DNA of 64,000 nt from Escherichia coli. Lineage in GTDB: Bacteria > Pseudomonadota > Gammaproteobacteria > Enterobacterales > Enterobacteriaceae. The notes beneath the pieces were generated by a model. The model was not told the origin of the DNA and ran no database searches. It was given only the letters and a program-made list of their open reading frames with translations. The position numbers and the translations under genes are program-made. Positions 36,668 to 39,853 of the stretch are shown here, piece after piece. Each line of letters opens with the position of its first letter. The first letter of the stretch is position 1. Where the stretch lies: the NCBI RefSeq assembly GCF_009931435.1, contig NZ_CP043414.1, one strand, 5' to 3'.

Positions 36668-39600
36668 ATGAAAAGAATGTTAATCAACGCAACTCAGCAG
36701 GAAGAGTTGCGCGTTGCCCTTGTAGATGGGCAGCGTCTGTATGACCTGGATATCGAAAGTCCAGGGCACGAACAGAAAAAGGCAAACATCTACAAAGGTA
36801 AAATCACCCGCATTGAACCGAGTCTGGAAGCTGCTTTTGTTGATTACGGCGCTGAACGTCACGGTTTCCTCCCACTAAAAGAAATTGCCCGCGAATATTT
36901 CCCTGCTAACTACAGTGCTCATGGTCGTCCCAACATTAAAGATGTGTTGCGTGAAGGTCAGGAAGTCATTGTTCAGATCGATAAAGAAGAGCGCGGCAAC
37001 AAAGGCGCGGCATTAACCACCTTTATCAGTCTGGCGGGTAGCTATCTGGTTCTGATGCCGAACAACCCGCGCGCGGGTGGTATTTCTCGCCGTATTGAAG
37101 GCGACGACCGTACCGAATTAAAAGAAGCACTGGCAAGCCTTGAACTGCCGGAAGGCATGGGGCTTATCGTGCGCACCGCTGGCGTCGGCAAATCTGCAGA
37201 GGCGCTGCAATGGGATTTAAGCTTCCGTCTGAAACACTGGGAAGCCATCAAAAAAGCCGCTGAAAGCCGCCCTGCTCCATTCCTGATTCATCAGGAGAGC
37301 AACGTCATCGTTCGCGCATTCCGCGATTACTTACGTCAGGACATCGGCGAAATCCTTATCGATAACCCGAAAGTGCTCGAACTGGCGCGTCAGCATATCG
37401 CTGCATTAGGTCGCCCGGATTTCAGCAGCAAAATCAAGCTGTACACTGGTGAAATTCCGCTGTTCAGCCACTACCAGATCGAGTCGCAGATCGAGTCCGC
37501 CTTCCAGCGTGAAGTTCGTCTGCCATCCGGTGGTTCCATTGTTATCGACAGCACCGAAGCGTTAACAGCCATCGACATCAACTCCGCACGCGCGACCCGC
37601 GGCGGCGATATCGAAGAAACCGCGTTTAACACCAACCTCGAAGCTGCCGATGAGATTGCTCGTCAGCTGCGCCTGCGTGACCTCGGCGGCCTGATTGTTA
37701 TCGACTTCATCGACATGACGCCAGTACGCCACCAGCGTGCGGTAGAAAACCGTCTGCGTGAAGCGGTGCGTCAGGACCGTGCACGTATTCAAATCAGCCA
37801 TATTTCTCGCTTTGGCCTGCTGGAAATGTCCCGTCAGCGCCTGAGCCCATCATTGGGTGAATCCAGCCATCACGTCTGCCCGCGCTGCTCCGGTACCGGC
37901 ACCGTGCGTGACAACGAATCCCTGTCGCTCTCTATTCTGCGTCTGATTGAAGAAGAAGCGCTGAAAGAGAACACTCAGGAAGTGCATGCCATTGTTCCTG
38001 TACCAATCGCTTCTTACCTGCTGAACGAAAAACGCTCTGCGGTAAATGCCATTGAAACTCGTCAGGACGGCGTGCGCTGTGTGATTGTGCCAAACGATCA
38101 GATGGAAACCCCGCACTACCATGTGCTGCGCGTGCGCAAAGGGGAAGAAACCCCAACCTTAAGCTACATGCTGCCGAAGCTGCATGAAGAAGCGATGGCG
38201 CTGCCGTCTGAAGAAGAGTTCGCTGAACGTAAGCGTCCGGAACAACCTGCGCTGGCAACGTTTGCCATGCCGGATGTGCCGCCAGCGCCAACCCCAGCTG
38301 AACCTGCCGCGCCTGTCGCAGCCCCAGCACCTAAAGCTGCATCAACAACACCAGCAACTCCTGCACAACCTGGGCTGTTGAGCCGCTTCTTCGGCGCACT
38401 GAAAGCGCTGTTCAGCGGTGGTGAAGAAACCAAACCGACCGAGCAACCGGCACCGAAAACTGAAACGAAACCGGAACGTCAACAGGACCGCCGTAAGCCA
38501 CGTCAGAACAACCGTCGTGACCGAAATGAACGCCGCGACACACGTAGCGAACGTAATGAAGGCAGCGATAATCGCGAAGAAAACCGCCGTAATCGTCGCC
38601 AGGCACAGCAGCAGACTGCCGAGACGCGTGAGAGCCGTCAGCAGGCTGAGGTAACGGAAAAAGCGCGTACCACCGACGAGCAGCAAGCGCCGCGTCGTGA
38701 ACGTAGCCGCCGCCGTAATGATGATAAACGTCAGGCGCAACAAGAAGCGAAAGCGCTGAATGTTGAAGAGCAATCTGTTCAGGAAATCGAACAGGAAGAA
38801 CGTGTACGTCCGGTTCAGCCGCGTCGTAAACAGCGCCAGCTGAATCAGAAAGTGCGTTACGAGCAAAGCGTAGCCGAAGAAACGGTAGCCGCACCAGTGG
38901 TTGAAGAAACTGCCGCTGCCGAAACCATCGTTCAGGAAGTGCCTGCTCCGCGTACAGAACTGGCGAAAGTCCCGCTGCCAGTCGTAGCGCAAACTGCGCC
39001 GGAACAGCAGGAAGAGAACAATGCTGATAACCGTGATAACGGTGGCATGCCGCGTCGCTCTCGCCGCTCGCCTCGTCACCTGCGCGTAAGTGGTCAGCGT
39101 CGTCGTCGCTATCGTGACGAGCGTTATCCGACCCAGTCGCCAATGCCGTTAACCGTAGCGTGCGCGTCTCCGGAACTGGCCTCTGGCAAAGTCTGGATCC
39201 GCTATCCGATTGTACGTCCGCAAGATGTACAGGTTGAAGAGCAGCGCGAACAGGAAGAAGTACAAGTGCAACCGATGGTGACTGAGGTCCCTGTCGCCGC
39301 CGCTGTCGAACCTGTTGTTAGCGCGCCGGTTGTTGAAGAAGTGGCTGAAGTCGTAGAAGCCCCCGTTCAGGTTGCCGAACCGCAACCGGAAGTGGTTGAA
39401 ACGACGCATCCTGAGGTGATTGCCGCCGCGGTAACTGAACAGCCGCAGGTGATTACCGAGTCTGATGTTGCCGTAGCCCAGGAAGTTGCAGAACACGCAG
39501 AACCGGTGGTTGAACCGCAGGAAGAGACGGCTGATATTGAAGAAGTTGCCGAAACTGCTGAGGTTGTGGTTGCTGAACCTGAAGTTGTTGCTCAACCTCC

Positions 39601-39853
39601 CGCGCAAATCGTCGCTGAAGTCGCAGCAGAAGTTGAAACGGTAGCCGCTGTTGAACCTGTATTAGCTGTTGAGCATAACCACGCTACCGCGCCAATGACG
39701 CGTGCTCCGGCTCCGGCATATGTTCCGGAGGCACCGCGTCACAGTGACTGGCAGCGCCCTGCTTTTACCTTCGAAGGTAAAGGTGCTGCAGGTGGTCATA
39801 CGGCAACGCATCATGCATCTGCCGCGCCTGCGCGTCCGCAACCTGTTGAGTAA
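36668..39853 (+). CDS. rne: Ribonuclease E
   Basis: 1061-aa [33 protein letters not shown]... with S1 and catalytic N-terminal half and Arg-rich / acidic low-complexity C-terminal half. Confidence 0.95.

Follow-up and report, generated by a model that had tools for sequence, protein, structure and literature searches.

Long antisense reading frames opposite the scaffold half of Escherichia coli RNase E: probable by-products of composition over a tail of nearly fixed length

Introduction

Long open reading frames opposite a real gene can be driven by codon usage, above all in the antisense frame aligned with the codons of the gene (Mir et al. 2012, PMC3454372; Merino et al. 1994, as cited in PMC3454372). 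Antisense overlapping genes with experimental support, described in E. coli O157:H7 and P. aeruginosa (PMC9927249, PMC5810103, PMC8850804), form a distinct class. Like the frames found in rne, these are long antisense ORFs lying fully inside an annotated gene; there is expression evidence for them and, for some, purifying selection. RNase E provides the third point of comparison. Expansion and contraction of tandem amino-acid repeats have been described in the non-catalytic regions of the gamma-Proteobacteria enzymes (Ait-Bara, Carpousis and Quentin 2015, PMC4435900), with a bipartite composition, embedded microdomains and a slippage/deletion model of scaffold evolution.

Here we analysed rne in a stretch of 64,000 nucleotides of E. 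coli (RefSeq assembly GCF_009931435.1, contig NZ_CP043414.1), hereafter the window. As in the published model, an R/N/Q-rich part of the scaffold half is followed by an A/E/P/V-rich part. The window differs from it in that its repeats have decayed to a degenerate, peptide-level similarity and that length is almost invariant in E. coli. Judging from the sequence, we hold it very probable that the bias of the disordered scaffold creates non-coding antisense frames, and that indels at its repeats are rare and leave the length of 1061 codons near-fixed.

Methods

To obtain a null distribution for the antisense frames, the rne protein was kept and its synonymous codons were either permuted or resampled (two models), the longest antisense run being scored. 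Values of dN/dS were computed according to Nei and Gojobori between the window and the K-12, O157 and Nissle strains. Tail length was surveyed in a rank-spread sample of about 96 of the 5425 E. coli genomes in which rne is annotated under that name, together with two allele-specific searches; indels of 3-9 nt would thus be noticed only within the sampled genomes.

Results

The features sought for an RNase E of Enterobacteriaceae are all present: a catalytic half, the Zn-link motif CPxCxGxG (as CPRCSGTG), a disordered tail bearing microdomains, the rne 5′ UTR element and the neighbouring genes. In a profile search, the product carries the Pfam domains S1, RNase_E_G, RNase_E_G_Thio and PNPase_C, with PF00575, PF10150 and PF20833 above their gathering scores in the N-terminal catalytic half. 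The genome is of E. coli type; in it the gene lies with rluC on one side and flgL on the other, and is preceded by the Rfam rne5 leader, an autoregulatory 5′ UTR element (RF00040, 36307-36643, 260 bits). The coordinates of all features are collected in Table 1.

Table 1. Features of the rne region, in window coordinates
Feature	Position	Strand	Basis or remark
rne, RNase E, 1061 aa	36668..39853	+	ORF, Pfam and annotation
Non-catalytic disordered scaffold half, residues 530-1061	38255..39853	+	composition; domain limits from PMC4435900
Antisense ORF A, 245 aa, GTG start, frame aligned with rne codons	38342..39079	-	probable artefact
Microdomain segment	38360..38413	+	coordinates from PMC4435900; 16-residue sequence same as in K-12
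Antisense ORF B, 243 aa, TTG start	38412..39143	-	probable artefact
AR1, arginine-rich, RNA-binding, residues 604-644	38477..38599	+	coordinates from PMC4435900
Microdomain segment	38822..38860	+	coordinates from PMC4435900
13-nt in-phase direct repeat, left copy	38893..38905	+	ACCAGTGGTTGAA here, ACCGGTGGTTGAA in K-12; end point of the GN4738 deletion
AR2, arginine-rich, residues 796-814	39053..39109	+	coordinates from PMC4435900
Antisense ORF C, 152 aa, TTG start, frame of ORF A	39149..39607	-	probable artefact
Microdomain segment	39167..39217	+	coordinates from PMC4435900; conserved in alignment
A/E/P/V-rich acidic tract, about residues 851-1020	39218..39727	+	only degenerate peptide-level repetition
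13-nt direct repeat, right copy	39502..39514	+	ACCGGTGGTTGAA; end point of the GN4738 deletion
Small-indel hot spot in acidic tract, residues about 968-984	39571..39618	+	three indel events cluster
PNPase-binding site, residues 1021-1061	39728..39850	+	PF12111 at residues 1022-1058; coordinates from PMC4435900
rne intrinsic terminator hairpin	39872..39895	+	terminator scan; also inverted repeat I7

The protein matches K-12 Rne in gene, neighbours (rluC-rne-flgL), length and microdomain residue numbers; indeed, MTS, AR1, HBS, AR2, EBS and PBS align to K-12 without a gap at the published positions. It differs from K-12 Rne by 29 amino-acid replacements, only 3 of which fall within these six microdomains. 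Residues 1-529 carry no replacement relative to K-12, and their protein sequence is 100 % identical to that of E. albertii. Nucleotide identity to K-12 is 97.5 % over the catalytic half and 94.4 % over the C-terminal half, and the sense dN/dS of rne against K-12, O157 and Nissle is 0 and 0.15, respectively. Among the 5425 E. coli genomes the nearest rne allele is no closer than 98.2 %. We rejected an E. albertii-type sequence, as the nucleotide identity to the type strain is 92.9 % over the catalytic half and 85.9 % over the tail, whereas E. coli genomes reach 98.9 % identity to the window over 16 kb. We also observed that the scaffold holds its 1061 codons in E. coli despite a divergence about twice that of the catalytic half and the presence of short direct repeats.

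The biased composition that the earlier note had attributed to the scaffold half is real by residue counts. Residues 530-1061 consist of 14.7 % A, 13.9 % E, 11.8 % V, 10.9 % P, 10.2 % R and 8.6 % Q, whereas Leu (2.3 %) and Ser (3.6 %) are scarce compared to residues 1-529 (10.2 % and 6.6 %). In total, the C-terminal half contains 12 Leu and 19 Ser codons, among which are two TTA, no CTA and one TCA. Conservation is found at the microdomains. AR1 shows a single replacement relative to K-12 (T630N), and RDNR-type units are inserted at this place in the alignment of other genera. The 13-residue motif at 38822..38860 is conserved in the aligned Escherichia sequences and in Citrobacter, with one to three substitutions in other genera, and the 19 residues of AR2 are invariant in an alignment of 12 sequences.

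We reproduced, at their exact coordinates, the two minus-strand ORFs of 243-245 aa reported in the earlier note (38342-39143). ORF A lies in a stop-to-stop stretch of 268 codons (38345-39148) and ORF B in one of 301 codons (38415-39317). The stops bounding ORF A read TCA (Ser559) and TTA (Leu828) in the sense direction; mainstream E. coli has CCG and TTG at these codons. The codon-aligned antisense frame runs open for 564 codons in K-12, O157 and Nissle. The K-12 stretch includes both ORF A and ORF C and gives 551 aa from an ATG. The same frame is cut three times in the window, five times in MFDS1022581 and at other positions in YZ22PE165. The frame of ORF B is split at 38841-38843 into 142 and 158 codons in mainstream E. 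coli, because Leu725 is encoded there by the synonymous CTC and not by CTG, and the 301-codon stretch is shared with only a handful of related alleles of rne (MFDS1022581, 2017-02-2CC). Long antisense open stretches also lie over the tail in 70 or more other RNase E genes, and extend as far as the whole tail in Pseudomonas.

When the rne protein was held constant, the 268-codon run of the codon-aligned frame was close to expectation (null mean 274-284, median 256; P = 0.37-0.50), the fully open frame of K-12 having a P of about 0.04. The 301 codons of the other antisense frame compare with about 155 under the null (P about 0.014 in both models); whole-tail codon shuffling, which is blind to local composition, gave P = 0.002. 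This excess hangs on one synonymous codon, and it is lineage-specific and not found in mainstream E. coli. The plus-strand alternate frames listed in the earlier note do exist, as ORFs of 52-78 aa with at most 83 stop-free codons. However, they are shorter than the 114 codons expected from codon shuffling (P = 0.85), and we therefore dropped them as not noteworthy.

Comparison with K-12, O157 and Nissle did not reveal purifying selection on the antisense translations: their apparent dN/dS is 0.93-1.69 in the codon-aligned frame, with 1.25-1.69 for ORF A, and 1.9-2.3 in the other, against 0.15 for rne. Openness is not kept either, both frames being interrupted at differing sites among the E. 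coli strains compared. Neither long ORF of the window (A or B) contains an ATG codon, inspection for the consensus found no Shine-Dalgarno sequence upstream of the antisense NTG starts, and a consensus scan of 38000-40050 found no sigma-70-like site on either strand and no terminator on the antisense strand. No Pfam family was matched by any of the four antisense or alternate-frame translations. The antisense translations are rich in F, L, R and T, the mirror images of E, K, R and V codons. Finally, rne is not mentioned in the main text of the papers on E. coli overlapping genes that we checked.

Repetition in the DNA is modest. The window contains no tandem array, and its exact repeats reach at most 14 nt; TRF yields no more than a 9-nt unit present in 2.2 copies (39025-39044). 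A whole-tail excess of repeated k-mers was rejected, since it disappeared once the R/N/Q-rich and A/E/P/V-rich parts were shuffled separately, and can therefore be ascribed to the two-part composition rather than to repeats. In each sub-region the repetition of DNA 9-mers and 12-mers showed no excess over codon shuffles. The acidic tract contains families of short degenerate direct repeats with in-phase spacings, and 80 pairs of peptide 3-mers compared to 49 in codon shuffles.

Of about 96 E. coli genomes sampled evenly, all but four carry the standard rne of 1061 codons, a length kept even in a strain only 88 % identical over the C-terminal half. The commonest variant is a 12-nt (4-codon) deletion at 39607-39618, seen in 98203 and isolate 648; 109 of 5415 genomes (2.0 %) have this allele, which looks clonal. 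A single genome, Combat11I9, has lost 3 nt (1 codon) at 39589-39591. In the E. albertii type strain the 27-nt unit at 39571-39597 is tandemly duplicated, and this species shows further length changes of +3 and -6 nt. The urinary isolate GN4738, the single genome in which this allele was found, carries an in-frame deletion of 609 nt (203 codons) ending at the two copies of the 13-nt repeat; it is devoid of residues 742-944, hence of AR2 and the enolase site. All the indels found are in frame, lie within the C-terminal half and occur at short repeats or microhomology. Across Pseudomonadota the tail ranges from 253 to 759 aa, with wide variation between genera. The earlier suggestion that this is a site of repeat-length variation is thus weakly supported: there is length polymorphism, by 3, 12 and 609 nt, each divisible by 3, in E. 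coli, by duplication in E. albertii and between genera, but the indels are rare, no tandem repeat is present and length is nearly fixed.

Discussion

The scaffold half embeds short binding motifs for the membrane, RNA, RhlB, enolase and PNPase. Its composition very probably generates the antisense frames by itself. Indeed, an antisense stop requires that the sense strand read TTA, CTA or TCA, and antisense stops are few in the tail because Leu and Ser codons are scarce and mostly other than these three. With 12 Leu and 19 Ser codons, long minus-strand frames follow automatically, and their limits are set by a few, mostly synonymous, choices of rne codons varying between strains. Like described shadow ORFs, the rne frames lie opposite a real gene, are accounted for by the codon and amino-acid content of their host and, in the codon-aligned frame, have the length expected from simulation. 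However, the driver in rne is mainly amino-acid bias, i.e. the scarcity of Leu and Ser, and not a genome-wide codon bias, and the effect is limited to half of the gene.

Could one or both of the long minus-strand ORFs nevertheless be real, translated antisense genes overlapping rne? Their length (243-245 aa here and, counted from an ATG, 551 aa in K-12) and the nominal excess of the second frame over the composition null would be in keeping with this, and both E. coli and Pseudomonas are reported to translate antisense genes of this overlapping kind (PMC9927249, PMC8850804). In contrast to those supported genes, the rne frames are broken in close relatives, with stops that come and go mostly through synonymous rne changes, show an apparent dN/dS of 0.93-2.3 and are devoid of start signals; promoter-like sites and Pfam matches are likewise absent, the translations read as mirrors of E/K/R/V codons, and the checked E. 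coli literature on overlapping genes leaves rne unmentioned in its main text. We judge such genes extremely improbable, and we give no better chance to the idea that the 301-codon stretch is a young lineage-specific antisense gene or that the 551-aa mainstream frame is translated. It is more likely than these antisense-gene readings that the exact 1061-codon length of the fast-evolving tail is itself under stabilising selection. That the ORFs are artefacts of composition, as the earlier note had proposed, is strongly supported by four independent, sequence-based tests, namely the composition null, the non-conservation, the antisense dN/dS and the absence of expression signals and family matches.

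The other alternative concerns the repeats. A hypervariable repeat locus with frequent copy-number shifts, serving as a typing marker or as a contingency-type switch altering degradosome composition, would fit with the in-frame variants (-3, -12 and -609 nt in E. coli; +27, +3 and -6 nt in E. albertii), with the grouping of three events at 39571-39618 and with the spread of tail lengths across Pseudomonadota. Such a locus is very unlikely here, given that there is no tandem array, that no exact repeat exceeds 14 nt, that k-mer repetition stays at codon-shuffle level and that standard length prevails in the sampled genomes and is kept even by a strain 88 % identical in its tail, the commonest variant being clonal-looking and confined to 2.0 %.

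We thus return to a disordered, low-complexity scaffold with rare repeat indels. This coding sequence carries short in-phase degenerate direct repeats, between which replication slippage or deletion very probably produces occasional in-frame indels, rare within E. coli; over longer evolutionary distances the same events very probably change the length of the tail. The published model (PMC4435900) predicts events such as the repeat deletion of GN4738 and the E. albertii duplication of the 9-codon AEPEVVAQP unit, and the former looks like an example of its "deletion between direct repeats" step.

In conclusion, the antisense ORFs and the near-constant tail length agree with what has been published on RNase E and on shadow ORFs, and are in this sense ordinary. 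Annotation, or a screen aimed at overlapping genes, could miscall the frames of 240-300 codons that lie opposite rne (550 in K-12). The main value of our analysis is that a false lead has been cleared, with explicit grounds given against calling antisense genes in rne.

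Antisense frames over the RNase E tail

All but one of 5426 complete E. coli genomes match the region, which is annotated as rne throughout the matches listed; five of the 5425 matches lie in records typed as plasmids. Both minus-strand ORFs of the earlier note, ORF A and ORF B, were recovered in the ORF listing in exact agreement with the places it gave, together with a further antisense ORF (ORF C) and plus-strand alternate-frame ORFs of 52-78 aa. The biased composition that it described is likewise confirmed: the disordered non-catalytic half of RNase E (the tail, residues 530-1061) consists of 14.7 % A, 13.9 % E, 11.8 % V, 10.9 % P, 10.2 % R and 8.6 % Q, Leu (2.3 %) and Ser (3.6 %) being scarce.

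Features of rne and its surroundings, and deletions found in other E. coli strains (window coordinates unless stated)
Feature	Position	Strand	Remarks
rluC	upstream of rne	-	
rne 5' UTR element RF00040	36307-36643		5' of rne; Rfam
rne (RNase E)	36668-39853	+	1061-aa ORF; contains the whole region
S1 domain	RNase E residues 36-117		Pfam
RNase E/G domain	RNase E residues 121-391		Pfam
RNase E/G thioredoxin-like domain	RNase E residues 403-488		Pfam
PNPase-binding C-terminal motif	RNase E residues 1022-1058		Pfam
ORF A	38342-39079	-	245 aa, GTG start; codon-aligned frame
ORF B	38412-39143	-	243 aa, TTG start; second frame
ORF C	39149-39607	-	152 aa; frame of ORF A
Deletion, Combat11I9	39589-39591		3 nt; one codon lost
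Deletion, 98203 and isolate 648	39607-39618		12 nt; VVAE next to VAAE
Deletion, GN4738 (seen in NZ_CM177114.1, locus L002, 1069-3645)	38893-39501		609 nt, in frame; residues 742-944 lost; 858-aa protein
flgL, flgK	downstream of rne		

The codon-aligned antisense frame is stopped only by a sense TTA, CTA or TCA, and the tail, with 12 Leu and 19 Ser codons in all, has just two TTA and one TCA. These three codons (Ser559 TCA, Leu828 TTA and Leu999 TTA) are exactly the boundaries of ORFs A and C. In the second frame, stops arise only where a codon whose last two bases are TT, CT or TC precedes one beginning with A, and the long frame is bounded by TTC-AGC (582/583) and GTT-AGC (884/885). From stop to stop, the codon-aligned frame counts 268 codons (38345-39148), compared with a mean of 274 when synonymous codons of the tail were permuted (P = 0.37), a mean of 279 when codon order was shuffled (P = 0.50) and a median of 256 when codons were resampled from local usage (P = 0.41). 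Antisense frames of this length are therefore what is expected of this protein. The second frame, with 301 codons (38415-39317), nominally exceeds the approximately 155 obtained by permutation or resampling (P = 0.014), but one synonymous codon change removes this excess: Leu725 is CTG in the window and CTC in every mainstream strain examined, where the frame is split into 142 and 158 codons. The plus-strand alternate frames are shorter than predicted by codon shuffling (83 codons versus a mean of 114).

Could the antisense ORFs nevertheless be genes? The codon-aligned frame is open for 564 codons in K-12 (DH1), O157:H7, Nissle and others, where an ATG within it would give 551 aa. It is interrupted at three points in the window, at five in MFDS1022581, which carries the nearest allele, and elsewhere again in the divergent strain YZ22PE165; neither long frame is conserved among the E. 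coli strains compared. Purifying selection also fails to appear in either: between the window and K-12, O157 and Nissle, dN/dS is 0 in the catalytic half of rne, with no replacements at a dS near 0.11, and 0.15 in the tail, where dS is near 0.16, against 0.93-1.69 in the codon-aligned and 1.9-2.3 in the second antisense frame. Low antisense values occur only in the frame sharing third positions with rne, which holds no long ORF. Both strands of 38000-40050 lack a sigma-70-like promoter, and there is no Shine-Dalgarno sequence ahead of the GTG or TTG starts, no ATG inside either long ORF of the window and no Pfam match to the antisense translations; the richness of the latter in F, L, R and T is consistent with opposite-strand reading of Glu-, Arg-, Val- and Gln-rich sequence. 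Neither of two papers that list antisense overlapping genes of E. coli names rne in its main text. The earlier note's reading of the antisense and alternate-frame ORFs as composition artefacts is correct.

Long antisense stretches also lie open over the RNase E tail in about 75 other species, and in several Pseudomonas genomes across the entire tail. The rne frames are an instance of the long antisense "shadow ORF" phenomenon already published (PMC3454372, where Merino 1994 is cited for it). A 122-aa ORF with a GTG start at 36219-36587 (-), antisense to RF00040, is probably another mechanical ORF.

Repetition and length of the tail

TRF detected just 2.2 copies of a 9-nt unit in the region. 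A repeat search returned families of 12-33 nt with 61-94 % identity, the longest exact repeat being 14 nt; their spacings are mostly multiples of three, so that they represent recurring peptide motifs, VVEE and AEV among them. Repeated k-mers seem in excess when the whole tail is shuffled as one, but not once its R/N/Q-rich part and its A/E/P/V-rich part (the acidic tract, 39218-39727) are each shuffled on their own (P = 0.28 and 0.63 for DNA 9-mers); the one signal then left above the null is that of the peptide 3-mers in the acidic tract (80 versus 49). A dot-plot is accordingly expected to display a diffuse compositional texture and no array.

The length survey used rank-spread samples of the E. 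coli collection, disregarding a 1-nt 3' UTR polymorphism, and 39 of 40 and 56 of 60 sampled rows had the standard span. That polymorphism, inferred at 39854-39885 from spans of 1836 and 1837 at equal CDS length, sits within or upstream of the terminator. Fetching and aligning the off-length strains revealed in-frame deletions of 3, 12 and 609 nt (table). The largest, in the human urinary isolate GN4738, falls exactly between two in-phase 13-nt direct-repeat copies of ACCGGTGGTTGAA; the resulting RNase E lacks the arginine-rich segment AR2 and the enolase-binding site, the gene being annotated as intact. Among the 5425 genomes, GN4738 alone has tail coverage below 80 %. In an allele-specific query the 12-nt deletion was present in 109 of 5415 genomes (2.0 %), and all other rows among the matches listed had the undeleted 221-nt span except GN4738, whose 609-nt deletion clips the query start. 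The YZ22PE165 tail, at 88.3 % identity with 52 replacements, still has 1061 codons. In both fetched strains with the 12-nt deletion, a DUF1778 antitoxin and GNAT acetyltransferase toxin pair is inserted between rne and flgL (3425-4209 in L004 and L005, their respective loci); this pair is absent from the corresponding gap of the window (39854-40047). The suggestion that strains would vary in repeat length here was thus only marginally fruitful: rare in-frame indels exist, but there is no array and length is nearly always standard.

Between species, RNase E of the E. albertii type strain is 1069 aa long; in its gene the 27-nt AEPEVVAQP unit (39571-39597) is duplicated in tandem, and changes of +3 and -6 nt occur elsewhere. 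Lengths are 1053-1181 aa in other Enterobacteriaceae and 708-1288 aa in Pseudomonadota (setting aside one symbiont copy that is very short and one call that is truncated). The Enterobacteriaceae indels cluster in RDNR-type units of the arginine-rich segment AR1, in the acidic tract and in the P/A linker ahead of the membrane anchor, the short binding microdomains remaining fixed across the alignment. This variation fits the published model of slippage-driven repeat expansion offset by deletion between direct repeats (PMC4435900).

The rne allele of the window

Judged by its sequence, the window is of E. coli type, the best genomes being 98.9 % identical over 30000-46000. At protein level the catalytic half is 100 % identical to that of the E. 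albertii type strain, which is misleading: nucleotide identity to this strain is 92.9 % there and 85.9 % in the tail. The catalytic half (36668-38254) also has no amino-acid differences from K-12, O157, Nissle and a strain with 93.9 % nucleotide identity; between it and each of the four tested E. coli strains there are 37-40 nucleotide differences, all synonymous. Most flanking 500-nt bins are 99.4-100 % identical to the closest genome, 2017-02-2CC, the identity falling to 96.4-98.4 % over rne, flgL and flgK (37000-38500, 39500-40000, 40500-42500). The nearest tail allele is that of MFDS1022581 (98.2 %), and the catalytic half is about 97.5 % identical to every strain. This dip and the differing nearest alleles suggest a mosaic, recombinant segment.

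In conclusion, the region presents no departure from known RNase E biology or from known shadow ORFs.
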